Assembly (NCBI GenBank): GCA_963786955.1 | Contig: CAWBAT010000003.1 | Location: 32,001 to 96,000, forward strand | Origin: an uncultured Acidimicrobiia bacterium | Lineage (GTDB): Bacteria; Acidobacteriota; Terriglobia; Versatilivoradales; Versatilivoraceae | Length of the DNA stretch: 64,000 nucleotides | Direction: 5' to 3' | Shown: in pieces, positions 2,337 through 64,000 of the stretch | Layout of the letters: every line of letters starts with the position of its first letter | Position numbering within the stretch: position 1 is the first letter of the stretch | Program-made: the position numbers and the translations under genes | Notes under the pieces: model-generated | What the model was told of the DNA's origin: nothing | Databases searched by the model: none | Seen by the model: the letters and a program-made list of their open reading frames with translations, nothing else

Positions 2337-3713
2337 ATGAATAATGGAAAGCGAATCAAGTTGTTGATCGCCGACGATGAAAAGAATTTCAGCTTGATTC
2401 TTCAAAAAGAGCTTTCCCGGAAGGAGTATGACGTTTCGGTTGCCAATGACGGAAAAAGCGCCGTTGAATTTGCAGAGAAGGTAGACTACGACGTCATCGT
2501 AATGGACATCATGATGCCGAATTTAGATGGGATTCAAGCGCTAAAAATTCTGAAGCAAGCTGAGCCCTCACCGGAAGTCATCATGTTAACGGGGAATGCA
2601 TCGGTTGAAACGGCCATTGAAGCCATGAAGGCTGGCGCTTATGACTACCTCACAAAACCCTGTAAAATCGAAGAATTGGACATTTTGATCCGCAAGGCCT
2701 ACGAGCGAAGGGCCCTGCAGAAAGAAAATTTATTCATGCAGGTCCGATTGAACCGCAAAGAAGCGACACACCAGCTGGTTACCAATAACCGGAAGATGAA
2801 AGAATTACTCTCGCTTGTGGAGCGTGCCGCTCAATCGGAATCGAGCGTATTGATTCAAGGTGAGAGTGGTGTGGGGAAGGAATTGATAGCACAATCGATC
2901 CACCGCTTTTCTTCTCGGTATGGACAGCCGTTCATAGATATCAATTGTGGTGCGATTCAAGACACCCTATTGGAGAGCGAAATGTTTGGCTATGAGAAGG
3001 GTGCGTTTACTAATGCCGATTCCTCCAAACCGGGGCTCTTTGAGCTCGCGGATCACGGTACCCTTTTTCTTGATGAGATTGGTGAATTGAGCCCGCGCCT
3101 CCAAGTGAAACTGTTGCGGGTTCTAGAGACTCGTACGTTTTTTCGCGTCGGCGGCGTGAAACAGGTGAAGGTAGACATTCGGCTGGTAGCGGCGACCAAC
3201 AAGACTCTACAGGAGGAAGTTCAAGAGAATCGATTCCGACAGGATTTGCTCTATCGCATCAATACGGTTACCGTCGAAATCCCTCCATTGCGGGAGAGAA
3301 AGGACGATGTTCCAATCCTTGTGGAACACTTCGTGAAGAACTTGGCCAGCAAAACCCCATTGTCTGTATCTTCAGAGGCAATGGAACTGATGTCGGAATA
3401 CTCTTGGCCTGGAAATGTGAGAGAGTTGAGAAACGTCATTGAACGCGCCCTGGTTTTAACTCCCGCTGGAGAAATCACCAAAGACTGTTTGCCACTCGAA
3501 ATCTATAATCGGAAAAAGACCGTGGTCCCTGTCTCGCCAAGCGAGAAAACGGCTGTGAGTTCCACGTTGAGTTTGGCGGAAATGGAGAAGGAGCAAATTA
3601 TCGCCATCTTGAACAAGGTGAACTGGCATCGCGGTAAGGCTGCTATCCTTCTTGGGATTACGCCCAAGACCCTGTACCGAAAGTTACGCTCCTACAATCT
3701 CCAAACCGATTGA
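2337..3713 (+). CDS. Sigma-54-dependent response regulator, NtrC/AtoC family
   Basis: REC domain, Walker A GESGVGKE, GAFTNA motif, LFLDEIGE, WPGNVREL and a C-terminal Fis HTH. Good RBS (ggagga). Confidence 0.95.
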   Translation: MNNGKRIKLLIADDEKNFSLILQKELSRKEYDVSVANDGKSAVEFAEKVDYDVIVMDIMMPNLDGIQALKILKQAEPSPEVIMLTGNASVETAIEAMKAGAYDYLTKPCKIEELDILIRKAYERRALQKENLFMQVRLNRKEATHQLVTNNRKMKELLSLVERAAQSESSVLIQGESGVGKELIAQSIHRFSSRYGQPFIDINCGAIQDTLLESEMFGYEKGAFTNADSSKPGLFELADHGTLFLDEIGELSPRLQVKLLRVLETRTFFRVGGVKQVKVDIRLVAATNKTLQEEVQENRFRQDLLYRINTVTVEIPPLRERKDDVPILVEHFVKNLASKTPLSVSSEAMELMSEYSWPGNVRELRNVIERALVLTPAGEITKDCLPLEIYNRKKTVVPVSPSEKTAVSSTLSLAEMEKEQIIAILNKVNWHRGKAAILLGITPKTLYRKLRSYNLQTD

Positions 3714-4091
3714 ACAGCAGGAAGGTTCCTTCCAGTGGATACATCCCGAATTTAATAAAGATCTTTGCTGCCGCTTGGACTGCCAAAACCTCAAGATAGG
3801 CCCCCAACTGTGATTAGCCGATGAGGGGTCGTTGATTAGGATTTTGCGAAGTGATGCTTGCGTTCTATAGCGCTATCTAGGGGTGGTCATGTGTACTTGC
3901 AAACCATCTACCATTTATGAAAGAGGAAAGGGGAACTTTGGTGTATCCTGAAATCTTTAATCTTGTGTCAGTCGAAGTTCCCTAAAGTTATTAATAATTT
4001 CCCTAGAATCGCTGGTATTCTCCTCGGAGGAATATCAAAGGTTGATAGAAGGGACTCTCTTCTGAATATTTACTAGAAGGGTTAGTGACTC

Positions 4092-6146
4092 ATGAGAAAG
4101 ATATTTGGCTTCACTGGCATCTTGGTATGTTGCCTCCTCATATCGTGCCGGCCGCCCAAAGATCATACGAAACTTGCCGAAGGTGAGAGCCAGCGTTATG
4201 TCCAGTTGCTGGAAAGAATCGAATCTGCCGGCAATCAGTACCGGCAAGCTATTGATTTGTTTAGGTATGCAGATTCAACCCTCGAGCGGAGTTTGGCAGA
4301 AAGCCATTTGGACCTCTCGCGTCAATTTCTGGAAACTCAGTTTCAGGTTGCCGAAATCGAGTTGAAGGCCTTAGCGCTGAGGGAGTCTGATCCTTTTGCG
4401 GCGAAGACTGCTTCAAGTAAATCGTCCGATGACGTTCAGTACGAAAAAATAGTTGAAGAAGTCTGGACACTTTCAGCAGAACTGGATGGGGCGAAGGCCC
4501 ATTTTCAGAAAACTCACGAAAATCTCAAGAAGGCGTCTACCCCAGACAGCTTTCGAAGGGCCCAAATTGCTCTCGATCTGTCTCAAAAAGAGGTCATGAT
4601 TGCCGATAGAAAGCTGGATCTTGCTGGCTCGAACTTAGACATCCACGATTACCAACGCAAAAAAAATGCCTCAAAGAGTCTGCAGTCGTTTTCGCTGGCT
4701 GATCGTATAAAACTCCTAAAAGAAGAGCTGCTTACCTCTCCAAGTAAAGTTGCTGTTTTCGCGGGCCAACTAAACAAGGGAGCGGAACTTCATTTAGCAC
4801 AGCCATCCCAAGACACCCACCCCAGAGGACTCTTAGTGAATATTCAAGATTACCTGGATCGTAGTCGTAAACTTGAAATCCTCGAAAGGGCCAAAAAGAA
4901 AACCTTGGAGATGCAACAAGCTGTCCGTTTGACTTTAGAAGAACATTTGCGGGAATTTGAAAAGCTGCAACTGGAACACTTGGAACTCAATCAAAAAACC
5001 ACCTCGATCTACAACCAAGCTTACAATCTGGTAAAAAATGGTGGGAAACAAGACGAGGTCAAAGGGCTTTTTGATACCGCAGAACAGCAGTTGAGTTTGT
5101 CCGCTCGTCTCGATGAACAAAAGGAGCTAGCAAAAAAAACCATCACCCTGGTTCGAAATCAAGATTTGCTCATCCAGGAGGATAGCGAAAAAATTATCGA
5201 CTGGGCGACAATGGCGTCGGAGGATCGCAAAGAGTCACTTTATCGCGTTGCCAATCGTGCCGGGATTGTGCTGATGTTGATCATCCTAGTCCTGTTGATT
5301 TCCTTTTATCTGAAGCGTTTGCCTTACCGGTTCATGCAGGAAGGGAAAAATGCTTTCTATTTTCGCAAGTTGATTAGTTTCTGTTCCGCACTTGCGATTG
5401 GGGCCATGATTCTGATCAATTTTATTAGCGATTTTGGGAGCGTATCGGCCGTAATCGGTTTAGCCGGAGCCGGCCTTGCGATTGCATTACAGGATCCCAT
5501 AGTCAGTCTGGCTGGTTGGTTCCTGATCGTTGGGAAGTTTGGAATTAGCGTAGGGGATCGAATCGAAATAAGCCATGTCAAAGGAGATGTTATTGATATT
5601 GGATTGTTCCGTCTTGCCATACTGGAAGTCGGGAATTGGGTAGGCGCTGAGCAGTCGACGGGACGTGTCGTCTTTTTTCCCAACAGCTTCATTCTTAAAA
5701 ATCACTATTACAATTATTCAACTGGGAATTCGTTCATTTGGGATGAGATTAAAGTCACCCTGACTTCTGAAAGTGATTGGGAGAAAGCCAAGCAAATTGT
5801 AGAGAACATTGCCTTTCAAGTTTCACAAGAGTTTATTGAAGAGGCCAAGGGGCAATCCGATGAGATTGCCCGGCGCTTTCATATCAATCTGGGTACCCTC
5901 ACCCCTATCGTATATGTTTCCATTGGAGAACGAGGTGTTGACTTGCTGCTTCGCTATTTGACTGCCATTCGAAAACGGCGAATGACTAACGATCAAATCA
6001 GTCGCGAAATTTTGGCTGCATTTGAAGGGGATCCCCGATTGGTTTTGGCTTACCCAGCGCGTGGAATAAGCTCGGATTCCAGAACTATTCCCGAAAGAAA
6101 CCCATCCAACAGGGAACCGGAGCCCCATTTGCCAGGGAAGATCTAG
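4092..6146 (+). CDS. MscS-family mechanosensitive channel with long N-terminal coiled-coil domain
   Basis: C-terminal GLAGAGLAIALQD, VGDRIEISHVKGDVIDIG and TGRVVFFPNS motifs. N-terminal signal with possible lipobox (LLISC). Confidence 0.88.
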   Translation: MRKIFGFTGILVCCLLISCRPPKDHTKLAEGESQRYVQLLERIESAGNQYRQAIDLFRYADSTLERSLAESHLDLSRQFLETQFQVAEIELKALALRESDPFAAKTASSKSSDDVQYEKIVEEVWTLSAELDGAKAHFQKTHENLKKASTPDSFRRAQIALDLSQKEVMIADRKLDLAGSNLDIHDYQRKKNASKSLQSFSLADRIKLLKEELLTSPSKVAVFAGQLNKGAELHLAQPSQDTHPRGLLVNIQDYLDRSRKLEILERAKKKTLEMQQAVRLTLEEHLREFEKLQLEHLELNQKTTSIYNQAYNLVKNGGKQDEVKGLFDTAEQQLSLSARLDEQKELAKKTITLVRNQDLLIQEDSEKIIDWATMASEDRKESLYRVANRAGIVLMLIILVLLISFYLKRLPYRFMQEGKNAFYFRKLISFCSALAIGAMILINFISDFGSVSAVIGLAGAGLAIALQDPIVSLAGWFLIVGKFGISVGDRIEISHVKGDVIDIGLFRLAILEVGNWVGAEQSTGRVVFFPNSFILKNHYYNYSTGNSFIWDEIKVTLTSESDWEKAKQIVENIAFQVSQEFIEEAKGQSDEIARRFHINLGTLTPIVYVSIGERGVDLLLRYLTAIRKRRMTNDQISREILAAFEGDPRLVLAYPARGISSDSRTIPERNPSNREPEPHLPGKI

Positions 6147-48279: not shown

Positions 48280-49419
48280 CTATGGTTTTTCAGTATCAAC
48301 TCCATTGCCCATGATCTCCGCCAGAGCCACCGCGCGATGCTCGTCTAGGGATTTGTAACAGGCATCCACTAGTGCCATAGTCTTCAAGTTATCCTGGCCG
48401 CTAATTTCAGGGTCCCCATCCTCATAGACAGCCCGCATGAGCTGTGCCATTGTGCCCTCGAACGCATCCGGGAACCAACGTTCTTTCCAGCGTGGCTGAA
48501 AAATATAGCTGGGCTGCTGCCGGCTGGTAAAGTTGAGTGTGCTGGGACTTCCCTCGGGATAGTCGGGCCAGCCGATGGTTCCCCAGGCGGCACCCTTCGC
48601 TGCCCTCGACGCGCCATTGAATGGAAGGCGCGCCTAAGGCGCCGTCCCGAGTAGGCCCTGTCCAGACATCATCCCACGACGTGGCGCGCAGGCCATTAGC
48701 ATACTCAAGAATGTAAAGGGCAATGCCATCACGGTGTTTATGCTTAAGGCGCGGATCGGGGCAGGCACTGGCAAACACCCGCTCCGGATCACCAAAGAGA
48801 AAGCGAAAACAATCCAGGTGATGAATGCTTAAGTTCAGCAATGTCAGTCGATTATAGTTCTGCAGAAAAGTCTGCCAGTGGGGAATCGCACGCAGTTCGA
48901 TGGTGGCCAGCACCGGCGATCCCAGAATTCCTCGCTTCAGCAAGGTCTTTAAGGCCCGGATCGATTGGTCGTAACGCATGTTCTGGTTGACGCCCAGCTT
49001 CTTTCCGCTGTAGCTTCACAAAGTTGGACGATTTGACAGGCTTCGAGATAGTTCATCGCCAAAGGTTTTTGGGCGAGTATGGCGCGAATGTGCGGCCTCC
49101 GGACGGCTTCGCGAATGATGTCGTGCTGTAAATCTGGAGGGAAAGCGATATCGACGATTTCTACGTGGGGATCATCCAGCAATGTTTGCCAGCTGTCGTA
49201 TACCTTCGGGATATTTCGTATCCTGGCAACTGCTCTGGCATTCTCAGGTGAGCGGGAGGCCAGGGCAACGACATGGAAATCGGCATTCTTGTAGGCAACC
49301 AGGTGAATATCCCGCATGATAAAACCCGCCCCGATACAACCAATTCCGTAATCGGTTTTGGCGGGGAAATGCGGGAGATAATCCAGGTCGAGATCAATGG
49401 GTAAGAACGTTTCTGGCAT
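48280..49419 (-). CDS. Gfo/Idh/MocA oxidoreductase; frameshifted
   Basis: IGAGFI, AQKPLA, NQNMRYDQS, IHHLD and WFPDAF motifs. Confidence 0.88.
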
Positions 49420-49633: not shown

Positions 49634-51688
49634 TTAAGGGGGATAAGATCGCAGCCCAACCGCCTCCAGAGGCGAGACGAACATGCAGATAGTCTGCTCG
49701 ATGAACTCGCATTTCTGCTGATTTTTACGCTGGTAGCAACTTTGTCGGCGTCCGGTTCCATCCGCAAAAATGAGTGCCTCGTACTCCCCCTGGCCAAGGA
49801 AATCCAAGGACACTTCCAAATCCCGGGAGTCCCAATTCGTCATGCTGCCTAGATACCAGGTCTCGCCATGTTGCCGCGCTATCGTGATGTACTTTGCCGG
49901 TTCTCCATTGAGGACCTTCGTCTCGTTCCATACCGTTGGAACTCTTTCAATGAACTCAAAAGCGGGTTGGTCTTCATAAGCTGCCGGGTAATCCGCAAGC
50001 ATGGCCAATGGCATCTCATAGACAACGTACATGGCAAGCTGGCGTGCGCGGGTTCCCTGTGACATGGGTTCGATCATGCGTGGCTTGAACTCTTCACGTG
50101 TGGCGTTATGAAACGACCCGGGCGTGTAGTCCATCGGCCCAGCCAGCATTCGGGTGAAAGGGATAGTCACTTCGTGCTCCAGGGTTTGCCCGATCCCCCA
50201 CCTTGTGGTATTCCATGGCCAGAATGCCTTCACTAACCAGCTCATTGGGATAAGTCCGACGCAGTCCCGCGGATTTATGAGCGCCATGGAAATCCACAAC
50301 CAGATGGTGTTCGGCAGCCTTGCGCGCCATCTTTTCGTAGAAGTTCACCATCTCCTGATCATCCCGATTCATAAAGTCAATTTTCACACCCGATACGCCC
50401 CACTTCTCGTAAAGCGGAAAAGCGGTTCCATCTGCTCTCTCACAGCAGTCCAGATCATCCACAGGAGTATCCGGACTCCCCGGCGCTTGGCGTGGGCGAG
50501 GATATCCGGTAAATCGACTTCCGCGATTGGTCGTGTGATGTCATTAAAAGGCGACCAATTGCCGTCAATCAACATGTACTCCAAGTGGTGTTCGGCGGCA
50601 AAATCAATGTAATGTTTCAACGTGGCCGTATTCATCCCTGGCTCGAAGTCCACGCCTCTTTGCCAGACGGCCAGACCACCAGTCCCACGCGGCCTTGCCT
50701 GGCTTGATCCAGGACGTATCAGCCAGGGCACAAGGCGGGCTTAGATTCAGGATCAAGATAATTGGATTCGATGAGTCCGCCAGGGCGAGAGTCAATCATG
50801 AAAACCCGCCATGGTGATGCTTTTGGAGTTTTTCCCAGAACGATGTCCTCTGATCCGACTTGATCGCTACGGCGGCGGGACGAAATTAAGATGGCTGCTT
50901 GAGCCGACTTCCAGGTTCTCTCAAGCTCACTTTCGATAGCGACCGCGTCGATGTACGTTCCCATGGTCGAAGCGTCAAAGCTCGGCATCGGCGATAGCTT
51001 GCTCATCAAAGCATTTCGGACTCCGTAAACCGCAGATAAGTACATGCCGGCGTAATCCGTCAAATCAGCTTCAAGCAGTGCTACCCAAGGGCCTTTCGGG
51101 AATTCGATAAGCAAAGGCAATCCTATGGTCGAAGTGGGCTTGATTTGATCCAGAGTGACGCGATTAAAATGAGCTTCATAAGGAGTCGTATAAGCTTCCC
51201 AAATTAAGGGCATACACGAAGACATCTTGTGGAAAATAAAATCCTGTGTTCTCGGAAGAAAGGACAAATTGGTTGATCGCTTCCTGTTTTGGCAGGAAAT
51301 AGCGGAAGGCCACGCCCTCATTGTAGGCGCGGAAAATGAGGTCCAGTCGACGTCCTAGGGGTGGTTGCTCGCACAACGACACGATCAATTCGTTATAATG
51401 GTCACGGACAATGCGTTTTGCTCCAAACTCATTTTGCCAAGTTCCATCGTGAGAATGTCGCTCGGTTCCGACAATTTCGAAATCATGGTCAAGGGGTGGC
51501 AAATCTTTGAAATCCAGGCCCAACGGCGAGTCTGCCAAAACTAGGTTGGCCGATGTACGAGATCCGATAGTAGGCTCGTTCACCCGGAGGATAGGGCTGG
51601 AGGAGGGTTTTTAACTCGAAAGAGATGGAGTTGTTGCTCGTCCGGTGAAGTAACCGCTAGTGGCTGAAGAAGTGGTCTCTTGCATCAT
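49634..51688 (-). CDS. Glycoside hydrolase family 97; multiple frameshifts
   Basis: FRAYNEGVAFRY, SPWR, WIKPGKAAWDWW, YIDFAA, GVKIDF, DFHG, RTYPN, FTRMLAGPMDYTPG and QLAMYVV motifs. Confidence 0.9.
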
Positions 51689-56273: not shown

Positions 56274-57332
56274 TCACTGTTTGATTCTCGAGAAGTTGAC
56301 TCGAATCCCGGTAGTGAAAAGGATGTCATTGTTTTTGCGGCCTTCAACCGGGTTGCTTTGGTACCGATCGCTGAAGGTCAATTGCCAGGCGAGCAACTTG
56401 GTCAAGGTAGTTACGGTACCGAACTCAAAATTAATTCGGTACTGTCCCAGATCTGTCATATTCGGGAAGATCCGGAGAGCCTGGGTAAGAGACGTAGCCT
56501 TAGAGATTTTATGGGTGAGAGTATTACCAAAAGATAACTCCGCTGAATTCCGGGTCAACGGGGTTGAGTATTTCTCACGATTGTAATCGGCTCCTCCGAG
56601 CAGATCCAATCGGGTCCGTTCATTCTTGATGACACTGTAGCCAAGGCCTCCTCCGATGACGAAGCGCAAATCCAAATCCTGGAACTTGTCATATTCATAA
56701 TTGTTGAAGATGTTGACGAACAGGCGAGGGCTCAAGTTTTTATCGTAGGCCCAACCTCCGAGGATGGCTTGGGCGGTGCTTGCCGTTGTCCCGTCGACCA
56801 GTTTTCCGGTTGCGTAGATCTGGTTAAAATAGGCTATGGTCTTGTCTGTGCGGGTTACGCGCGAAGCGTTCATGGCAGAGTTGATTGTCGTTGTGTCGGC
56901 GTTCCCGCGGGCAAGGCTGACGCCTAGATCCGCATAACCGGTCCAGAGGTTGAAGATACTGGGATGTTGCAGCCGTTCGTAGGCTTTTTGCTCATCCGTA
57001 TTGCGAATGGCAGAAACGCTGGCAAACGGGACGGATTCTCTCGTAGTCGGCGTGGTGACCTCCAGCTTATTGTCTTGAGTGTCTACTTTTCCCAGAACCG
57101 ACTTCCCGTCCGGTAAGACCACGGTTACGTCCTCATCCGAGGTAACCTGTTCGACTTTTTCCCACGGAATTGTGACCTCTCCAAATACGCTACTCTTAAA
57201 GGCAAGGCTGGCTCCATCCTTCTTCAGGATTTTTCCAGACACTCGGTCGCCGTTCTTAAGTGTCACTTGATCGGCCCAAACCAGGCAGACAAAAAAAGGC
57301 AAAATAGCAATCGACAGTTTTCTTGAAATCAT
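56274..57332 (-). CDS. DUF481 outer-membrane beta-barrel protein
   Basis: Signal peptide, DQVTLKNGDRVSG, W.G...LG....RGN, YEYDKFQDLDLR, GGGLGY, and a terminal beta-strand. Confidence 0.8.
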   Translation of the reverse strand: MISRKLSIAILPFFVCLVWADQVTLKNGDRVSGKILKKDGASLAFKSSVFGEVTIPWEKVEQVTSDEDVTVVLPDGKSVLGKVDTQDNKLEVTTPTTRESVPFASVSAIRNTDEQKAYERLQHPSIFNLWTGYADLGVSLARGNADTTTINSAMNASRVTRTDKTIAYFNQIYATGKLVDGTTASTAQAILGGWAYDKNLSPRLFVNIFNNYEYDKFQDLDLRFVIGGGLGYSVIKNERTRLDLLGGADYNREKYSTPLTRNSAELSFGNTLTHKISKATSLTQALRIFPNMTDLGQYRINFEFGTVTTLTKLLAWQLTFSDRYQSNPVEGRKNNDILFTTGIRVNFSRIKQ

Positions 57333-57674
57333 GATCAATGGCCTCACTTTGAAATTTGAAAAGCGGAATGGGTCACTAAATTCTAGATCAGGTTGTAGGA
57401 ATTGTACGTGGTTGGATGCGGATTACCTTCCCCCCCGAATGAATGGGGTCGAAGTCGATTAGTGGATTGTGATCGTGGCGAAGTGCGGATAACGGAACTC
57501 TATTCCAAAAAGTTGCCTACCAGGGAGAGAAGATTCGAAGGTGCAGGAATAATTAGAGCTGTTCGGACGATCCCCTGATGAACAGCCCAGCTCTCTTCCA
57601 AAACGATCATACGTTTTCTCATTTGTTGTACCCGGTTTGCAGATCATTCTGCAAACCCCTATTTGGCCTCAATC

Positions 57675-58397
57675 TCAGGCTGTGGCTGTCCGGATGGTTT
57701 TGCGACGACGAGCTCGCTTGATTCCATATTTCGTCATTTTGTTATAGAGAGTCCGACGTGGAATCTCCATGAACTGAGATGTGCGGGTAACATTCCAATG
57801 ATTCTTTTCAAGAATCGCAGTCAATTGCTGACGCTCAATCTCGTCAATCGTCCGCTCAGCCAAAAAATCGCTTACTGATATCGTCGGTACTTTCAGATCC
57901 ATATCAGGGAATTTCTGCCCATGCAGCAGCGCCTTCGTCACCAATTTCCCAAACCGAACCAATCTTTCTTTATCGAGAGAAGTGAATAATCGGGCATTCG
58001 TCGTGCTGTCGAGATAAAGAATCCCACAAAAGGATCCATCGACGCGCAAGGGAACGGAAGCCAACGAGAGGGTATCGATCCACTTGAACGCCGCAGTCTT
58101 TCGAAACTTCTCTTCCTTGCGAGTGTCGGGAATATAAATGACATTCGGATTGTTGCGGAGCTCTGCCAGATAATGGTTACAGACTACTTCGATCGTCTTA
58201 ATGGACGCCGGATCCCCTCCAATAAAGGCTCTCGGATCCAAATTTCCTTCTGCATCTAAGACGAAAATAGCGCCTCGCTCAGAGTTTGACATCTTGACAA
58301 CCACAGACAAGAGCTTCTGGAGCAGCTTCCCCGGGACTAAAATACTCTCTACCAAATCCGATATTTGATCAATCAGCTCAATTTTGGTTTCCTTCAT
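57675..58397 (-). CDS. GAF domain plus Fis-type HTH regulator (no AAA+ domain)
   Basis: GAF (ERGAIF, SLASVPL..GILYLDS, FTSLD) joined directly to TIDEIERQQLTAILEKNHWNVTRTSQFMEIPRRTLYNKMTKYGI. Confidence 0.8.
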   Translation of the reverse strand: MKETKIELIDQISDLVESILVPGKLLQKLLSVVVKMSNSERGAIFVLDAEGNLDPRAFIGGDPASIKTIEVVCNHYLAELRNNPNVIYIPDTRKEEKFRKTAAFKWIDTLSLASVPLRVDGSFCGILYLDSTTNARLFTSLDKERLVRFGKLVTKALLHGQKFPDMDLKVPTISVSDFLAERTIDEIERQQLTAILEKNHWNVTRTSQFMEIPRRTLYNKMTKYGIKRARRRKTIRTATA

Positions 58398-58671
58398 GGA
58401 CTAATTTCCCCCTTTTCTTCACGGAATTTGTGATTATCATATTCCCTGTGCAAGAACCGACACGGTATTATACCATTTGAACAGCCTCTCTTAAAAACAA
58501 CCCATTTCTTTGAAGACTCTTTCTTGATCGGAAAACTGAAGAACCAGGAGCTATTCGAAAGGAGAACGGAAGTAATGATCCGCGCCCCATAGTCTGCTAG
58601 ATCAACGTTCCGAGTACCCCGTATTTTACACCTAATTAACTTTCCACAATCAACAATAAAAAGGAGAAAAA

Positions 58672-59334
58672 ATGAGATCGAAAAACGTAGTTCTCATCAT
58701 TGGGTTAGTGTTTCTTGGAATATGTGCTAAAAATAGCACCTGTTTAGGTAAGGTAATAAGCACACAAGCGTCACCACTTTCTCGATACGCCGGACCGAAC
58801 TCGATCGGCCCGTCCAAGCTTTTTGCTGGGCCTGAATTGACACGATCTGCCGAATTGACAGTTCGAGACGGCTCTGAGGGGATTCCGCCACAAGCTCTTT
58901 TGATCAGAGATGGCTCCGAAGGGATTCCGCCACAAGCTCTTTTGATCAGGGATGGTTCGGAGGGGATTCCGCCACAAGCTCTTTTGATCAGGGATGGTTC
59001 GGAGGGGATTCCGCCACAAGCTCTTTTGATCAGGGATGGTTCGGAGGGGATTCCGCCACAAGCTCTTTTGATCAGGGATGGTTCGGAGGGGATTCCGCCA
59101 CAAGCTCTGTTGATCAGAGATGGCTCTGAGGGGATTCCGCCACAAGCTCTTTTGATCAGGGATGGTTCGGAGGGGATTCCGCCACAAGCTCTTTTGATCA
59201 GAGATGGCTCTGAGGGGATTCCGCCACAAGCTCTTTTGATCAGGGACGGCTCCGAAGGGATTCCGCCACAAGCTCTTTTGATCAGAGATGGCTCTGAAGG
59301 GATTCCGCCCGTTGCAAATTTGAGCATTGGTTAG
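58672..59334 (+). CDS. Secreted tandem-repeat precursor: signal peptide, leader and 11 x RDGSEGIPP
   Basis: RBS AAGGAG at 58661-58666 and signal-like N-terminus MRSKNVVLIIGLVFLGIC. Ten exact RDGSEGIPPQALLI units plus a terminal RDGSEGIPPVANLSIG. All DNA differences between units are synonymous in this frame. Confidence 0.85.
   Translation: MRSKNVVLIIGLVFLGICAKNSTCLGKVISTQASPLSRYAGPNSIGPSKLFAGPELTRSAELTVRDGSEGIPPQALLIRDGSEGIPPQALLIRDGSEGIPPQALLIRDGSEGIPPQALLIRDGSEGIPPQALLIRDGSEGIPPQALLIRDGSEGIPPQALLIRDGSEGIPPQALLIRDGSEGIPPQALLIRDGSEGIPPQALLIRDGSEGIPPVANLSIG
58864..59310 (+). repeat. 42-bp coding tandem repeat, 10 full units plus 1 partial
   Basis: Units start at 58864, 58906, 58948, 58990, 59032, 59074, 59116, 59158, 59200, 59242 and 59284. 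Near-invariant core gggattccgccacaagctcttttgatc. Confidence 0.97.
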
Positions 59335-59484
59335 ATCTGGGTTAGAGAGTTAGCTAATTGCTGGTAGAATCGCTCTCGTATTTCTTCAAGTCGCAGGGGC
59401 TTCCAGGAAAATCCTCACGTGGGGCAGGGAAGATTCCGACGAATCTTCCTTTGCCCTAACAAGGATATACGGGATTATCAGGGT

Positions 59485-60198
59485 ATGAGCGGACTCCAGC
59501 AGGCAATCGCAACGATTGGTCAGGTGATTCACTTTTTTCTCCTCCTGATTGGATTACGTCACCAACGGTTCCGGAGGTGTATTACCTTCTATTTATACCT
59601 ACTGGTCTCATTCATTTCCTCTATTGTGATTTCTTATCTTGTAAGCGAAAAAGAGTTGAGGAGGCAACTTTACTACCTCAAAGAGTTTCTATTGGATTTG
59701 ATTAAGATTGGAATGCTCATTGAGTTAAATAAGAATATTTTTGGTTTTTTCCCGAAAGTCCAACGGTCCAACCGAGCCTTATTTGGCATAACAGGCATCC
59801 TGTTTGTTGTCTACGCGTTTGCGTTGCCTGCGGAATCCAGAACTTGGTGGGGGTCTCTTCCCTTTGATTTACACTCTAAAGTGTTGCAAACTACGTGCTT
59901 AGCCTACTTGATGATGGTGTTTTCAGCGCTTTATTATCGCATTGAGGTCGCAACAGATTATAAGTTTCTGCTGGTTGGATACTTGTTTTCGCAACTGCCT
60001 GTTGCTCTAGGGTTTGCCTATGTTGCAATCGCTGGGGAGGCCGCAAGGAATAGAGTGAGTCTATTGAACTCTATATTCTTTGTGCTTGCAATGGTCGTCT
60101 GGACGAGAGTATATTGGGCAAATGATAAGGATACTGATTCCCCTGATATTATTGGCCGTGGGGTGGATCTTCCTGTTTCTTTTAGGGCGCCGGAATGA
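59485..60198 (+). CDS. Hypothetical ~7-TM membrane protein
   Basis: About seven hydrophobic segments separated by short basic loops (RHQRFRR, PKVQR), ending in VVWTRVYW. No enzyme motif recognised. Confidence 0.75.
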   Translation: MSGLQQAIATIGQVIHFFLLLIGLRHQRFRRCITFYLYLLVSFISSIVISYLVSEKELRRQLYYLKEFLLDLIKIGMLIELNKNIFGFFPKVQRSNRALFGITGILFVVYAFALPAESRTWWGSLPFDLHSKVLQTTCLAYLMMVFSALYYRIEVATDYKFLLVGYLFSQLPVALGFAYVAIAGEAARNRVSLLNSIFFVLAMVVWTRVYWANDKDTDSPDIIGRGVDLPVSFRAPE

Positions 60199-60844
60199 AC
60201 GTAAAGTGCGCTCAGAATGGCACGCCCTGCTAAGTCCTCGAGGACAAATTCTATTCGAATCTGCCCGCAAAGAAGTTGAATCCCATTCCTTAATGCTGGA
60301 TGTAGCCATGAACGAAGCGTTAAGCATCAAGAAATTGGGTGATATTGATGAAGCCATCCGATTCTTGAATATAGGTTGTGAGGTCATTGAAAGATTTACT
60401 CCAGATCTTCTTTCTCTGCTATCCGTCATGGCTAAGTTTTCAAGGATGGTTAGCGCCATAGCACCTGTTGAACCGCTTGTTCCCAAGGATTTTCATCTGG
60501 CAGAGTTAGTCAGTTTGGCGCACCTTCACAGGTTAATGAACCAGGTCGTTGTCTCTACAAAACAGCGATTTCGCATGAGAATTTACATCCTCGGCAAGGG
60601 AATATCGATCGCCAGCCGTTATTTGATTTCCAAGATCAAGGATATCGTCGTGACCAAAAGCCAGGACCAGAAGGAATGGCGGGAAATTGTTGAAATCGAG
60701 CAAGATTTCAATACACTGTCACGCGAGTCTCTGCAGAGTTTTCGTACTCTTCTCGAAGTCTTGTCTGGCGAAGATGCTCGGAGGTTATCGCAAGACCTGT
60801 GTATTAAGACCGCTTCAACCCGCCAGACAAATCACGTCGCATAA
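60122..60844 (+). CDS. Hypothetical protein with a single N-terminal TM anchor and a helical cytoplasmic domain
   Basis: MIRILIPLILLAVGWIFLFLLG followed by RRNERK, then about 215 aa of predicted helix with QRFRMRI. Overlaps the upstream gene by 77 nt. Confidence 0.7.
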   Translation: MIRILIPLILLAVGWIFLFLLGRRNERKVRSEWHALLSPRGQILFESARKEVESHSLMLDVAMNEALSIKKLGDIDEAIRFLNIGCEVIERFTPDLLSLLSVMAKFSRMVSAIAPVEPLVPKDFHLAELVSLAHLHRLMNQVVVSTKQRFRMRIYILGKGISIASRYLISKIKDIVVTKSQDQKEWREIVEIEQDFNTLSRESLQSFRTLLEVLSGEDARRLSQDLCIKTASTRQTNHVA

Positions 60845-61198: not shown

Positions 61199-61986
61199 GT
61201 GAGTGAGTCGAGACTTAAAATATTGGTTGTCGACCATGAAGATGCGGAATTTTTGCGCGCTTCCGTAAGTCTCTTTGGCGAAGCGGGGTTCAATGTTGAC
61301 TCATGTTCCGATTGGGACGCCATGCAAAGGAAACTCAACCCCTCGGTTCGGACTACGGATATTCTGATTATGGACATTACCTGTTTTCAAGACCGGGATA
61401 GCTACCTCCTGTTGATGGAACTCCGGGGAAAAGAATATACCAAGGACCTGAAGATCATTCTCACAACAGATACCCTTGTGGAGGAGTTATTGCTGCGGAC
61501 TCGTCGAGAGTTGGGAATTGTCGCCTCGTTTAATAAGAAGCGGCCTGTAGAGGAACTACTCTACGTCCTCACGAACATTTTTCCGCCCAGCGGTGAAAAT
61601 TTGCGACGCTCCCGAAGGGTCCCGGCTCGTTTCTTGGTCCAATCCTCTTTGGAGGGTAAGACCAAAGTACTCTGTGCAAGGAATCTAAGTCGAGACGGTA
61701 TTTTCGTTGAAAACCATATCCCCGACCCGGTTGGAACTGCGGTTGAACTTTCGTTTACCCTCCCGGGAGAAGCTCCAAACTGCTTGTCAAAGCGAGAGTT
61801 GCCCGGGCGACTGCTGGCTCTCAAGTTACAAAACAAGAAGTATTCCCAGCCGGGAATGGGTTTGAATTTGTTGATGTTTCTGACGTTGACGCTCGCTTCT
61901 TGAAAGAATACTTGGAGCATGAGGAATTGAGAATCTTTGGTTCTGATGAAGAGCCCAGTCCAACGCAAGCCTACACTGGGACATAA
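61199..61986 (+). CDS. REC-PilZ domain protein; 3' frameshift
   Basis: REC (ILVVDHED, ILIMDI) and PilZ motifs RRSRR and NLSRDG. The tail VKARVAR...GFEFVDV is in the alternative frame, ending at TAA 61984-61986. Confidence 0.78.
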
Positions 61987-62208: not shown

Positions 62209-64000
62209 TCATTCCACAAGGTGACGTGGATCGATGGAAATTTGGGTTGTGCGTCGCTGGCAAATTCAACAATGGGCCAGGCTTGCGGAATTCGCCCGCC
62301 ATTTCACCGAGCAGATCCCGTTTGAAATACTGACCCGTTGCCGCCCGAGGGGTATTTCCTGAAAAAGACCACTTCAGGGTGAGCGCATTAATGTCAACTT
62401 CGATGTTCATATCGGCATAAGCACCAGTCTTGTCGAAGCCGAAATACTTCTGCCATGCTTCCAAATCCAGAATTAAGGGTGGCGTAACCAAGAAAGCCAA
62501 TTCAGCCCGCGACCCAATGGCTGTGTCTCTTCCATCACCTCGCCCCAATCTTTCTGATAGAGGTTTCCCTCCACGGTGTTGTCAGGATTAGAAAGGTCGA
62601 TAGCCTTGCCACAGTGGTAGAAGACATTGTCTAAGACTTTATTCCGGCGCGTCGTGCCGCCACGCGGTCCGACGATCCGCCCCTCGATGTTCCTAAATTT
62701 GATGCCAGCGTCCTGGGTATAGCCGATCAAGTTATGGGCGATAATAGTTTCGTCGCTCCCATCCACTGTGATCCCCCATCCGCCATGGGGAGACATGTTG
62801 GGTGAACCTCCGCCCTTGCCTTCGGTCGCCTTCCAAATGATGTTGTTATCCAGCATGTTGGGGAATTGCGAGGCTTCCAGATAGATTCCGCCTCGCAGAG
62901 TTTCCAGGTTGTCACCCATCACGTTCCCAGTGACCCTTGTATTCGTATTCTTATAGTCGAGCCAGATCGCTTCCGCATGGACCGTATGGCGAATGACATT
63001 GTTCCGCAACAGACAGTCCTTGGTTAATGTAGTTTGATGCCTCCCGTCTCCCAAGATAACTCCACGTCCTGATAACCCACTTGTTCGATGAGGTTCCCTT
63101 CGACAAGCGTATCCTGCACGCCCATCCCTGCTAGCCCGCACACACCGGCGTCAATGATGTGATTTCGGCGCACAATGCTGTGCCCAATAACCTCAGGGTA
63201 TTCCATATCCCAATCCTGCGCACCGATATCGAGTGCGACACTATTGGCGTGCCGCAGCACGCAATCCTCGAAGATCCAGAAATTCCCGCGGCTTGCTGAC
63301 ACCATTCCCCGCTGCGGGACCGGAAACGCGTTGGCAGCGTGTTCAAAGGCGATACCTTTCACCCGGATGTAACTCAGTCCCCGCGTCCGTGGGGCCAGTA
63401 TCTGCTCCTGGATTGTCAACTCGATCTCGTGCTGGGCAGGGTCAGCATCCCCGGAAAGCCGCAGATGGATTGTCAAGCCCGTCGTGCTCACACCAGAAGG
63501 CTCCGTCTTTCTTAGCGAGCTCCTGATAGAGTTCTACTTGCTCCAGCCGCTTCCCATCGACGAAAACCATCCCACGCCGAAGCAGGTGCTGTCTCAACTC
63601 TTCCGGCTTGGGCTTCAAGTACACACGGTCTTGCATAATGTTTACCATGCCAAAGGGGTTGTAGCCCTGGAAATCAAGGTCGTCCAGACGTCGCTCGTAA
63701 ATTTTCACTATGGAGCGAGGCGGCGGGTGAGGGCCCAACTTGTAACTTGTGGAAATTGCCCAACCGGTCTTCACTAGCCGAGAACCTTTGATCATCACAT
63801 TTGCGCCAGGAGCAGATTCGTAACTGATCATCTTGTCGGGGCCAGTGCCGCCGCGTCTTGGATCCACAAACTCCCGATAGACGCCACTCATGATCACCAC
63901 TCGCTCGCCGGGTTGCAGTACCTGTGCAGCTTTGTTTACGGTGGAAAAAGGCAGTTCTGTCGTGCCCGGGTTCGTGTCACTTGCGCGAGGGTTTCTATTG
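62209..64000 (-). CDS. Right-handed beta-helix repeat protein (DUF1565-like start); 5' end outside the window, frameshifted
   Basis: ASDTNPGTTELPFSTVNKAA, GVYRE, RGMVFVDG, ETGGIKLH, IWLDY and repeated xxNxI beta-helix turns. Confidence 0.75.

Follow-up and report, generated by a model that had tools for sequence, protein, structure and literature searches.

A conserved four-gene cassette of Acidobacteriota with a multi-copy peptide precursor and a seven-helix protein of predicted GPCR-like fold: a candidate peptide-sensing system

Introduction

Why would a bacterium encode a protein built of eleven copies of a short peptide directly upstream of two membrane proteins, and could the three form a system for sensing that peptide? 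To our knowledge, bacterial peptide signalling is found almost only in the Firmicutes and a few other groups, and always acts via histidine kinases or cytoplasmic TPR receptors. The Acidobacteriota are an abundant and poorly understood soil phylum. The locus described here lies in a 64,000-nt stretch (the window) from an uncultured Acidimicrobiia bacterium, placed by GTDB in Acidobacteriota; Terriglobia; Versatilivoradales; Versatilivoraceae (assembly GCA_963786955.1, contig CAWBAT010000003.1, positions 32,001 to 96,000 of the forward strand). An initial annotation had suggested that the three genes could be ligand, membrane receptor (or peptide-processing protein) and membrane-anchored transducer.

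Results

Four genes form the cassette

We found that the locus comprises four genes. The coordinates of the open reading frames (ORFs) confirmed the trio as first described, all on the plus strand: a peptide precursor (58672..59334, 220 aa), a seven-helix membrane protein (7-TM; 59485..60198, 237 aa) and a single-pass membrane protein (1-TM; 60122..60844, 240 aa) whose gene overlaps that of the 7-TM protein by 77 nt. Absent from the initial annotation was a fourth part, a conserved, divergently transcribed regulator with a GAF domain and a Fis-type helix-turn-helix (HTH_8) (GAF-HTH; 57675..58397, minus strand, 240 aa). The region between the regulator and the precursor (58398..58671) presumably holds the divergent promoters.

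Three of the four proteins belong to no described family. The precursor, the 7-TM protein and the 1-TM protein were assigned to no family by Pfam or NCBIfam, and scanning them against these databases and PADLOC returned chance-level rows only (DUF2905 and Presenilin, E ~0.3). The sole PADLOC row, '2TM effector' (4.6e-4 over 54 residues), was also at chance level, and no defence family was found in any part. Enzyme, kinase and ABC transporter families were likewise not found in any part of the cassette. PDB sequence profiles gave no meaningful match, and in the ESM Atlas the membrane proteins matched only unnamed 'hypothetical protein' clusters (0.96 for 7-TM, 0.78 for 1-TM). Neither another module nor another ORF with at least two DG-x3-5-PP motifs was found elsewhere in the genome. 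A description of the module was not found in a full-text literature search whose coverage leaves out most subscription journals.

The repeat in the precursor is constrained at the protein level

The precursor consists of a signal-like N-terminus (approximately residues 1-24, beginning MRSKNVVLIIGLVFLGICAK...), a 40-aa linker and 11 tandem units of 14 aa. Units 1-10 are identical (each RDGSEGIPPQALLI), and the 11th is RDGSEGIPP followed by a divergent C-terminal tail, VANLSIG. At the DNA level, the array (58864..59325, plus strand) has a period of 42 bp, with 10.5 copies, 93% matches and a score of 740 in TRF. The repeat is under protein-level constraint: seven DNA columns vary among the 10 full units, and every change is synonymous in the plus-strand frame. 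The array is open or nearly open in all six frames, and one antisense frame, which gives an ORF of 225 aa (58650-59327), is almost equally clean, with a single K/N change. Because of this frame, the assignment of strand and frame leans also on three further points: a ribosome-binding site (AAAGGAG) 6 nt upstream of the ATG, the signal-like N-terminus, and homologous precursors, with 1-10 units, on the same strand in other genomes.

The unit peptide has no Cys, the spacers are hydrophobic (QALLI), and dibasic sites are absent. Clustering of ORFs from 32 loci revealed no protease encoded in the module. The initial annotation had suggested that the locus would be an amplified, multi-core version that reveals the mature peptide. 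The repeats do fix the unit as well as its conserved core; they do not mark where a mature peptide begins and ends.

Contigs from RNA libraries of three studies (95-99% alike) match 58400-58902, parts of the repeat, 59922-60351 and 60333-60819, and leave approximately 59444-59878 uncovered; these contigs indicate presence in the library, where DNA carry-over is possible.

The model of the 7-TM protein resembles GPCR-fold bundles, and conservation lies on its predicted cytoplasmic side

Alignment of homologues placed the start of the 7-TM protein at ATG 59485, not at GTG 59419. The protein of about 237 aa with about seven TM helices that had been proposed to follow the precursor is borne out by the AlphaFold2 (AF2) model, which has seven helices (pLDDT 85.5, pTM 0.80) and ends 26 residues past helix 7 in a tail of low confidence. 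We compared this model with 48,161 chains (VIA-wide). The best 50 were all of the GPCR fold, from Z 12.4 (rmsd 4.3, 190 residues aligned) to Z 10.2, values that lie below the Z of ~13 under which helical bundles can match through a common arrangement; no microbial rhodopsin was among these 50. Foldseek gave a best E of 0.033 with TM-scores of 0.41-0.51, and no match at E <= 0.001. The model thus resembles no structures other than GPCR-fold bundles, a likeness that does not establish homology. No 7tm Pfam family matched at E <= 1, and the PDB held no sequence match beyond a chance-level antiporter subunit (E 0.007). The proposal would have been in difficulty had the protein mapped to a known, unrelated enzyme or transporter family; Pfam, NCBIfam and PDB profiles gave no such assignment.

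We found that conservation in the 7-TM protein is asymmetric. Using the positive-inside rule and the AF2 helices to assign the two sides (predicted N-out/C-in), positions conserved in at least 80% of 24 orthologues numbered 13 of 105 on the cytoplasmic side and 3 of 106 on the outer side (Mann-Whitney p 8e-7). The conserved residues of the cytoplasmic face include E80, F86, P90, Y151, R152, K160 and W206; the outer face is the least conserved part of the protein. No His, Cys or Ser is invariant among 42 family members. Helix 7 (residues 185-211) contains no Lys in the window protein, and W206 is its sole invariant residue.

The 1-TM protein is predicted to dock on the 7-TM protein

The 1-TM protein fits its earlier description as an overlapping protein of about 240 aa with one N-terminal TM helix and a basic helical domain: the helix is followed by RRNERK, and the AF2 model is all-helical (pLDDT 72.9). 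None of 124 relatives (0/124) has a Pfam domain, and no known output domain was found in the module proteins. Twenty-three columns are invariant in 38 1-TM sequences, including the juxtamembrane R24 and E26 (RRNE). Foldseek returned nothing at E <= 0.001, and the VIA-wide search returned generic four- and five-helix bundles only (talin rod, Z 12.9; p130Cas; vinculin; designed bundles). We read these matches as the appearance of no enzyme fold, with no relationship implied.

A model of the complex of the two membrane proteins scored 0.61 (runs of 0.62, 0.59 and 0.61), compared to 0.00 for the best of three controls. In calibration, 58 of 80 solved complexes attained that mark, as did 2 of 110 mismatched pairs; this calibration holds only roughly here, where we supplied our own alignments. 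The runs had at least 64% of contacts in common, with a partner pLDDT of at least 54. In the modelled interface, 1-TM residues 2-33, with R24 and E26 among them, meet 7-TM residues 128-182, including 152-157 and 160. The 1-TM helix is thus predicted to dock on TM5/TM6.

The genes are linked in relatives, and most module-type 7-TM genes have a DG..PP peptide nearby

We found the four genes together in metagenome-assembled genomes of both Terriglobia and Vicinamibacteria. By tblastn, GAF-HTH, repeat precursor, 7-TM and 1-TM genes occurred together in relatives of several genera. Among 24 loci identified with a 1-TM profile, the 7-TM gene lay directly upstream in 18 of the 20 with enough upstream DNA (L025 and L027 had none), and a divergent GAF-HTH gene was present in 15. 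When ORFs from 32 loci were clustered, 1-TM was found in 31, 7-TM in 25 and GAF-HTH in 21, with no fifth widely common family; at the module locus L042, this query detected no GAF-HTH gene. The expectation that 7-TM homologues would be linked to the third gene held at all 25 module-type loci.

The initial annotation also predicted small signal-peptide ORFs with DG..PP motifs near 7-TM homologues. We applied an automatic rule that required the ORF to lie upstream on the same strand, to have a hydrophobic N-terminus and to contain a [DE]G-x2-6-P[PT] motif. Such an ORF was identified at 18 of 25 loci, compared to 1 of 268 and 3 of 216 control windows. At least two motif copies were found in none of the 268. 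The upstream peptides contain 1 to 11 copies of a D-G-x3-5-P-P core, in which D, G and PP are constant and the middle residues and spacers vary. Every precursor has a hydrophobic N-terminal start and a stop a few residues past the last PP. The single-copy DGxxxPP trios that the initial annotation had mentioned for Acidobacteriota do exist in the locus survey; their precursors are 47-60 aa long, with the motif at the extreme C-terminus.

The four proteins diverge at different rates. Identity to the window proteins in the two closest relatives was 95 and 81% for GAF-HTH, 92 and 80% for 1-TM, 89 and 70% for 7-TM, and 49 and 37% for the precursor. This order (GAF-HTH >= 1-TM > 7-TM > precursor) indicates that divergence is fastest in the parts that face outward. 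In one genome, two complete modules are present, and their peptides differ (NDGMTGIPP and KDGGSGIPP).

More distant 7-TM relatives likewise come with a small DG..PP peptide and a 1-TM gene that overlaps their own, but the regulator alongside is of the XRE type. Among 25 hits of this wider superfamily, 13 had a 1-TM gene by rule and approximately 6 a clear DG..PP peptide. The likeness of the distant 1-TM proteins is one of architecture only, because hhalign of the 1-TM profile with two of them gave probabilities of 1.5% and 0.3%. In 301 genomes sampled across the phylum, the 1-TM profile matched 3 and the wider 7-TM superfamily was present in 26, several of which are assembled into just one to four contigs.

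The regulator and the non-coding regions

Pfam identified HTH_8 (4.8e-11) and GAF (1.8e-06) in the regulator. NCBIfam added partial matches only, in which the regulator aligned with NifA at the GAF end (residues 4-152, scoring far below cut-off) and with several bacterial enhancer-binding proteins at the C-terminal HTH. The AAA+ sigma-54 interaction domain is absent from the 240-aa protein by both Pfam and NCBIfam. An orthologue of the regulator adjoins the module in 21 loci.

The intergenic region (58398-58671) has conserved blocks shared with the two closest relatives only, and no operator was identified in their alignment. A single -35/-10-like site lies within it, on the minus strand; scans for promoters and terminators did not rise above background (6 promoter-like sites vs 5.0 expected, and 9 terminator-like sites vs 4.9). 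The predicted fold of 59325-59490 has an energy of -57.5 kcal/mol (z -3.28), and none of 200 shuffled sequences was equally stable. Within it, a GC-rich hairpin without a U-tract (59421..59457, plus strand) lies in the gap between the precursor and 7-TM genes and is possibly an attenuator or transcript stabiliser. Relatives have hairpins of unrelated sequence at the same place, with z <= -2 in 8 of 12 loci. A receiver-PilZ gene is nearby (61199-61903) and is retained in the closest relative only.

Discussion

We favor, with a probability of roughly 45%, the notion that the cassette encodes a peptide signal exported as a polyprotein, a receptor complex formed by the 7-TM and 1-TM proteins, and a regulator dedicated to them. 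The precursor would be exported via its N-terminal signal segment and cut in or beside the hydrophobic spacers, freeing eleven peptides with the core x-D-G-x3-[I/V]-P-P. Cuts at the spacers of an eleven-copy precursor would therefore yield many peptides per translation. The 7-TM protein would sense the peptide on its variable outer side and form a membrane complex with the 1-TM protein, the 1-TM helix lying against TM5/TM6. A change would then be relayed inward, by the conserved residues of the 7-TM cytoplasmic face (from E80 to W206, as listed above) together with R24/E26 of the partner, to the 1-TM bundle. The bundle, as the putative transducer, may contact and control the adjacent GAF-HTH regulator, for example by holding or releasing it, and hence the divergent promoters.

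The proposal of ligand, receptor and transducer thus stands insofar as the 7-TM gene is linked to its neighbours and maps to no known unrelated family; the ligand role, peptide excision and transduction are what we infer. The receptor/transducer part gains indirect support because the conserved residues face the cytoplasm, the complex model has clean controls and a transcription factor is always adjacent. The peptide is linked to the 7-TM protein by adjacency and co-variation in rate only. The D-G...P-P core is constant, while conservation in the 7-TM protein is lowest on the outer face; therefore, the constant residues may serve processing and not binding.

Alternatively, the peptide might itself be the product (antimicrobial, metal-binding or surface-active), with the 7-TM and 1-TM proteins acting in immunity, export or maturation and GAF-HTH regulating the pathway, which would make the cassette a minimal cluster resembling those of RiPPs or bacteriocins. 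Some natural-product peptides (microviridins, plant and fungal RiPPs) typically derive from multi-core precursors, and multi-TM proteins beside precursors are often immunity proteins; 11 copies with a hairpin 3' of the gene would fit a highly expressed product. We nonetheless consider this unlikely. The conserved module includes neither a modifying enzyme nor a protease or ABC exporter, the precursor bears its own signal-like N-terminus, and the unit lacks Cys, with D, G and PP alone constant. In addition, the conserved 7-TM residues are cytoplasmic, away from an exported peptide, and this protein lacks any invariant His, Cys or Ser as well as a match to the CPBP, AgrB or peptidase families.

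It is also conceivable, if rather improbable, that the repeat protein stays whole, membrane-anchored or periplasmic, as a spacer, tether or protease substrate that the 7-TM and 1-TM proteins, as an envelope sensor, bind or monitor in cis. The module encodes no processing protease, and the N-termini of the Vicinamibacteria precursors could be signal anchors because they are short and have no obvious cleavage motif. The complex model shows that the 7-TM protein can accept a single TM helix at TM5/TM6, and Pro-rich repeats are common in envelope-spanning proteins. However, the single-copy forms, with their C-terminal motif, are too short for a structural spacer, and a range of 1 to 11 copies with the same partners is more easily explained if the dosage of a small unit matters than if a defined length does. 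Finally, the neighbours might have no common function, or the repeat ORF might be a non-coding tandem repeat open by chance, as the six open or nearly open frames and the antisense ORF with its one non-synonymous difference would allow. This is very hard to reconcile with a four-gene order kept across two Acidobacteriota classes while the repeat DNA differs, with precursors that all have a hydrophobic start and stop shortly past the last PP, and with a peptide-ORF rule that fires in 1 of 268 control windows. The RNA-library contigs also contain fragments of the precursor and of other genes of the cassette; they attest presence only and are not proof of transcription.

If the cassette does signal, it would represent a new receptor principle for bacteria and a communication system for Acidobacteriota, with a receptor-like part whose modelled helix arrangement resembles that of eukaryotic GPCRs. 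The repeat number, 1 to 11, would then provide a natural dosage of ligand. A bolder formulation, possible but doubtful, is that this is the first bacterial peptide-pheromone system on a GPCR-fold receptor, working without a kinase, through a single-pass transducer to GAF-HTH, and fed by a polyprotein with up to 11 D-G-x3-[I/V]-P-P copies; among Acidobacteriota, it would stand as the best-developed member of a wider superfamily in which DG..PP peptide, 7-TM and 1-TM are combined with interchangeable regulators. Because the amplified precursor points straight to a candidate ligand, synthetic peptide would offer an inexpensive test of the hypothesis. Since the 7-TM superfamily is present in 26 of 301 genomes, several of them few-contig assemblies, experimental hosts may exist. 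Even a product-plus-immunity cluster would be a new minimal peptide pathway.

Comparison with known systems

Several known systems share single features with the cassette. In RRNPP systems, a cytoplasmic TPR-domain receptor or regulator binds the peptide after its re-import; here, the regulator has GAF and HTH_8 domains and no TPR, and an oligopeptide permease is absent from the conserved module. Unlike NtrC/NifA enhancer-binding proteins, the regulator has no central AAA+ domain. Unlike 7TMR-DISM and 7TMR-HD proteins, the 7-TM protein has no such Pfam match and no fused output domain. Multi-core RiPPs (cyanobactins, microviridins) also carry several identical or similar cores in one precursor. 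However, no PatA/PatG, ATP-grasp-like enzyme or protease of the kind found in cyanobactin, microviridin or graspetide clusters is common to the 32 loci, and a Sec-type N-terminus takes the place of a RiPP leader. A CPBP/CAAX immunity protease was considered as an identity for the 7-TM protein and rejected: there is no Pfam match, and EExxxR and FxxxH, which we take to be the CPBP family motifs, are absent from the conserved 7-TM columns.

The Agr system of Gram-positive bacteria consists of the AgrD peptide, the AgrB membrane peptidase with its catalytic His and Cys, the AgrC kinase and the AgrA regulator. Like Agr, the cassette is compact and combines a small precursor and membrane proteins with a dedicated transcription factor; its precursor and candidate receptor diverge fast, and paralogous modules have differing peptides. 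In contrast to Agr, HisKA and HATPase domains are absent from both membrane proteins, the conserved core includes no response regulator, and the Cys-free peptide comes from a multi-copy precursor with its own signal-like N-terminus. We also rejected AgrB as an identity for the 7-TM protein, which has no AgrB Pfam match at E <= 1 (nor do 42 members at E <= 0.1) and no invariant His or Cys in 42 sequences or among positions conserved in at least 80% of 24 orthologues.

Other seven-helix proteins also have a helical partner. Calcitonin-family receptors hold the extra TM helix of a RAMP against the seven-helix bundle, and such chains are among the Foldseek matches; the large domain of the 1-TM protein is predicted to be cytoplasmic, whereas the RAMP ectodomain faces outward, and there is no sequence relation. 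Sensory rhodopsin II and HtrII are an archaeal 7-TM sensor and its membrane-anchored helical transducer. As in that pair, the genes are adjacent or overlapping and the partner helix packs on late helices (TM5/TM6 here, as predicted). Unlike microbial rhodopsins, the 7-TM protein has no conserved helix-7 Lys for retinal, and unlike Htr proteins (two TM helices, HAMP and methyl-accepting domains), the partner has a single TM helix and matches no domain in Pfam or NCBIfam.

In yeast, prepro-alpha-factor is a polyprotein with tandem mature peptides that are sensed by the 7-TM protein Ste2. The cassette differs in being bacterial, in having neither Kex2-type dibasic sites nor a G protein, and in having a single-pass partner and, probably, GAF-HTH as output; no sequence similarity was detected. 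The likeness is one of design, not of homology: a signal segment is followed by tandem copies of a short peptide with spacers, both here and in relatives with 2-10 copies, and a GPCR-fold-like seven-helix protein is encoded alongside the precursor.

A four-gene module in the window

We found four genes within 57675-60844 of the window. The 240-aa product of the regulator gene (57675-58397, minus strand) combines a GAF domain with a Fis-type helix-turn-helix at the C-terminus (GAF-HTH; Pfam HTH_8, 4.8e-11; GAF, 1.8e-06). It matches NifA only over the GAF end and enhancer-binding proteins only over their HTH ends, and lacks the AAA+ domain of the latter. The precursor gene (58672-59334, plus strand; 220 aa) has an AAAGGAG box six bases 5' of its ATG. 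The genes for a seven-helix protein (7-TM; 59485-60198, plus strand; 237 aa) and a single-helix protein (1-TM; 60122-60844, plus strand; 240 aa) overlap by 77 nt. We placed the 7-TM start at the ATG at 59485, where homologue alignments start, and rejected an upstream GTG at 59419.

A GC-rich hairpin (59421-59457) lies between the precursor and 7-TM genes. The fold of 59325-59490 has an energy of -57.5 kcal/mol (z -3.28), and 0 of 200 shuffles were equally stable. Hairpins of unrelated sequence occur between these genes in relatives, with z <= -2 (mononucleotide shuffles) in 8 of 12 loci. Hairpins 3' of precursor genes in peptide operons give a high ratio of precursor to machinery transcripts; by analogy, the hairpin may set such a ratio here. 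Fragments of the precursor gene, the 3' end of the 7-TM gene and the 1-TM gene occur in RNA-library contigs (three studies; 95-99% alike), which shows presence only.

A gene for a DUF481 outer-membrane-type protein (56274-57347, minus strand; 5.4e-36) adjoins the regulator gene and is conserved only in the closest relative. Downstream, the module is followed after 350 nt by a gene for a receiver-domain and PilZ-like protein (61199-61903, plus strand; weak matches, TIGR02266 2.6e-07). Only the closest relative retains this gene, so we left it out of the module. Elsewhere in the window, several genes appear to be split into adjacent or overlapping ORFs (48425-49419, 49637-51321 and 62473-63999). 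The N- and C-domains of a GFO/IDH/MocA oxidoreductase fall on two ORFs, a GH97 glycosidase is divided between an ORF for its N-terminal part and another for its catalytic and C-terminal parts, and a right-handed beta-helix (NosD-like) protein is spread over three. This suggests assembly indel errors or pseudogenes.

The precursor contains tandem DG..PP units

The precursor begins with a signal-like N-terminus (MRSKNVVLIIGLVFLGICAK...), from which a linker of ~40 residues leads to an array of repeated peptide units. Ten units are identical (RDGSEGIPPQALLI); the eleventh is RDGSEGIPP, followed by VANLSIG and the stop codon. Tandem Repeats Finder reported a 42-bp period with 10.5 copies, 93% matches and a score of 740. 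Seven DNA columns vary among the ten full units, and all variants are synonymous in the precursor frame. One antisense frame is nearly as clean (a single K/N change), so the choice of strand leans also on the ribosome binding site, the signal-like N-terminus and same-strand homologues elsewhere. The antisense ORF (58650-59327, minus strand; 225 aa; units GGIPSEPSLIKRAC) spans the whole repeat. We judged it a shadow of the sense frame, as it has no signal-like N-terminus and has one non-synonymous difference; relatives give it no support.

Precursors in relatives are of the same kind and differ in sequence and copy number (units counted by an automatic ORF rule or by eye from ORFs). Their units are ADGGGPIPPAPTQI (10 copies), ADGAEPIPPVDRNII (9), ADGPEPVPPTAVLI (at least 8, at a contig end), ADGPEEIPPAAVLV (7), NDGVDRIPP, ADGSTGIPPHY and MDGGNGQPP (3 each), ADGPEEVPP and ADGVFPTPPP (2 each), NDGMVGIPP (2 in each of two tandem genes), and MDGSDPFPT, MDGGPWPIPTP and MDGNAPPP (1 each). 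The initial annotation had mentioned single-copy DGxxxPP peptides in Acidobacteriota, and these precursors, with one copy upward, bear this out. The window precursor is the most amplified version among those found. The D, the G and the final prolines are constant, usually with I or V before PP. The three to five residues between DG and PP vary, as do the spacers (2 to 7 residues). Every precursor ORF stops a few residues past the last PP. At one locus (L031, 3635-4046), two tandem precursor genes with two NDGMVGIPP/HDGMVGIPP units apiece lie upstream of one 7-TM gene; amplification there is by gene duplication, not internal repeats. One genome (G313) contains two complete modules whose peptides differ (NDGMTGIPP in one, KDGGSGIPP in the other), plus further partial copies.

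The automatic rule called a precursor if the 1 kb upstream of a 7-TM gene contained, on the same strand, an ATG-start ORF of 30-260 aa with a hydrophobic N-terminus and at least one [DE]G-x2-6-P[PT]. It was positive in 18 of 25 7-TM loci, compared to 1/268 control windows from the same loci and 3/216 from the rest of the window. With two copies required, 0/268 control windows were positive. Among the loci missed, repeats are present in L021 and L026 (broken by frameshifts), L028 (reaching the contig end) and L033 (without an ATG start). L034 has a variant, LDSPFPPP, L045 has a candidate on the opposite strand, and the sequence upstream in L023 is only 264 nt. The frameshifts in these two relatives, L011/L021 (about 3840-4230 in L021) and L026 (about 3430-4120), lie inside the repeat arrays, with neighbouring genes intact, and are probably assembly error rather than decay.

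The 7-TM protein is modelled with a GPCR-like arrangement of helices

Pfam has no family for the window 7-TM protein or any of 41 relatives, NCBIfam gave no match, and a sequence profile search of the PDB gave no meaningful match. In the AlphaFold2 model (42-row alignment; pLDDT 85.5, pTM 0.80), seven helices precede a tail that is disordered from residue 217 on. Foldseek against the PDB found nothing at E <= 0.001 for this model; its best rows were the ghrelin receptor (E 0.033) and class C GPCR bundles. In a search independent of Foldseek (48,161 chains), the best 50 matches were GPCR-fold chains only. These included LYCHOS/GPR155 (Z 12.4, rmsd 4.3, 190 aligned), the V2 vasopressin receptor (Z 12.3, rmsd 3.2, 178 aligned), and oxytocin, adhesion, and class B, C and F receptors (down to Z 10.2). 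With this tool, Z below ~13 can reflect an arrangement common in helical bundles; we therefore claim a GPCR likeness of helix arrangement, and not homology.

Under the positive-inside rule, the stretches that follow helix 1 (RHQRFRR) and helix 3 (FPKVQRSNR) predict an outside N-terminus and an inside C-terminus. Residues conserved in at least 80% of 24 module-linked orthologues are the start Met, F35, Y38, L39, E67, E80, L81, F86, P90, L149, Y151, R152, K160, G165, G184 and W206. Positions this conserved make up 13/105 on the cytoplasmic side and 3/106 on the outer side, and the entropies of the two sides differ (Mann-Whitney p 8e-7). The alignment has no invariant His, Cys or Ser, and Lys is absent from helix 7. 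Such a pattern, conserved inside and variable outside, would be expected of a receptor whose ligand diversifies while its intracellular partner stays fixed. It does not fit easily with an enzyme whose substrate is an exported peptide.

The 7-TM and 1-TM proteins are predicted to interact

The 1-TM protein has one N-terminal transmembrane helix, then RRNERK, with helices in all the rest. Its model (pLDDT 72.9) shows the transmembrane helix followed by a helical bundle. Fold matches were generic four- or five-helix bundles only, including the talin rod (Z 12.9, rmsd 2.5, 127 aligned), p130Cas, vinculin and designed proteins; thus, no enzyme fold was seen among them.

Predictions of a 7-TM/1-TM complex scored 0.61 (runs 0.62, 0.59 and 0.61), and three controls all scored 0.00. 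By a benchmark that is rough because we made the alignments ourselves, this score is reached by 58/80 solved complexes and 2/110 mismatched pairs. The runs had at least 64% of contacts in common and partner pLDDT of at least 54. The predicted interface involves 1-TM residues 2-33, with invariant R24 and E26, and 7-TM residues 128-182 (152-157 and 160 among them), in TM5, the third inner loop and TM6. Conserved patches of the two proteins would thus meet at the inner membrane surface. The modelling supports binding of the 7-TM protein to the 1-TM protein.

The module is rare and its genes co-occur

Close relatives of the 7-TM protein are few: a word-indexed search of 5.8 billion proteins found 10. 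Among 1.84 billion cluster representatives there were 38 at E <= 0.001 and only 5 at <= 1e-10. The 1-TM protein is better conserved, with 124 matches (0 with a Pfam domain) and 23 invariant columns in 38 sequences. The 7-TM gene is in 14/41 related genomes, and in 10/24 within the window's own family. At ten 7-TM-bearing places in relatives, tblastn found regulator, repeat precursor, 7-TM and 1-TM together.

A 1-TM profile, run over one genome per species, identified 24 loci. The MAGs that contain them carry the labels Terriglobia, Vicinamibacteria or Acidobacteriota and, in a few cases, Acidimicrobiia or Gaiellaceae. The 7-TM gene is directly upstream in 18 and a divergent GAF-HTH gene is present in 15; a contig end cuts 4. 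Two loci (L025 and L027) have full flanks without a 7-TM gene. Their 1-TM genes (products 57% and 51% identical to the window's), with no precursor or GAF-HTH near, are orphan copies; L027 shares its genome with a complete module, L030. Some module-bearing MAGs are called Acidimicrobiia or Gaiellaceae in their titles (L021, L026, L027, L030 and L039), and the genome search counts them as kin of the window's acidobacterial family. These labels may be wrong.

Clustering of ORFs from 32 loci gave three widely common families: 1-TM (31), 7-TM (25) and GAF-HTH (21). The remaining large clusters are shadow frames of module genes, so there is no fifth conserved gene. The module is rare (1-TM profile matches in 3/301 phylum-sampled genomes), and the window's own genome has a single copy. 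Identities to the window are 95% (regulator), 92% (1-TM), 89% (7-TM) and 49% (precursor, a value depressed by assembly frameshifts) in the closest relative, and 81, 80, 70 and 37% in the next. The order is regulator >= 1-TM > 7-TM > precursor.

Some distant 7-TM genes have similar neighbours

A 7-TM profile matches 26/301 phylum-sampled genomes, including 14/22 in one family of the window's class. The proteins of these distant members share 17-25% identity with the window's. In 13 of 25 distant hits, a gene for a 134-193-aa protein with an N-terminal transmembrane helix starts no more than a few bases from the 7-TM stop, often in an ATGA overlap. A tandem 7-TM paralogue takes its place in 2/25, and the others had no partner gene under the adjacency rule applied. 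Several distant 7-TM genes are preceded by a clear signal-peptide ORF with a terminal DG..PP motif: WADGSAPVPPIPS (two copies), LMDGNVTPPPPPPPP, KTDGEADYPPPPPPPPP and WTDGVLPPPPPPPPEV. At L059, L062, L063 and L049, small signal-peptide ORFs just upstream end in D-G-x3-6 and then 8-10 consecutive prolines (e.g., LMDGNVTPPPPPPPPLKS).

The distant 1-TM proteins have no homology to the window's that hhalign could detect (probability 1.5% and 0.3%). The regulator adjoining distant modules is an XRE-type HTH protein instead of GAF-HTH. L049 (2660-3962) and L051 (2731-3973) have genes for an XRE-type HTH protein (~260 aa) and a conserved ~160-aa protein on the other strand, both unannotated and common to the two genomes. 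That the trio design is kept while the transcription factor is swapped argues for the trio as the functional core and for gene regulation as its role.

Proposed mechanism and alternatives

The most likely reading, to which we give a probability of roughly 0.45, is an exported precursor, released peptides, a 7-TM/1-TM receptor and GAF-HTH output. The precursor would be exported, and cuts at the spacers would release unit peptides. These would bind the outer face of the 7-TM/1-TM complex, and the signal would pass via the conserved inner face to the 1-TM helical bundle, the GAF-HTH regulator and the divergent promoters. The role of D-G and P-P, which are constant, may lie in processing or protease resistance, and specificity may reside in the variable residues between them. 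Such a division would explain a variable 7-TM outer face despite a partly constant peptide.

The genes might instead form a cluster for a product plus its immunity or export, which we consider unlikely. That the precursor is a tethered repeat protein, monitored in cis, seems slightly less likely still. It is very improbable that the genes are chance neighbours or the repeat is non-coding. The rest of the probability we assign to mechanisms outside these readings.

Our full-text literature search, whose coverage leaves out most subscription journals, found no description of the module. The membership tests that could be run assigned it to no known system. Since three of its four parts have no family and its architecture is unlike any described system, we regard the module as categorically new in parts and architecture. 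The logic of a secreted peptide, a membrane receptor and a dedicated regulator is a familiar one, and the proposed function is putative. The design is reminiscent of the yeast alpha-factor polyprotein and its 7-TM receptor, of sensory rhodopsin II with HtrII, of GPCR-RAMP pairs and of Agr-type cassettes.
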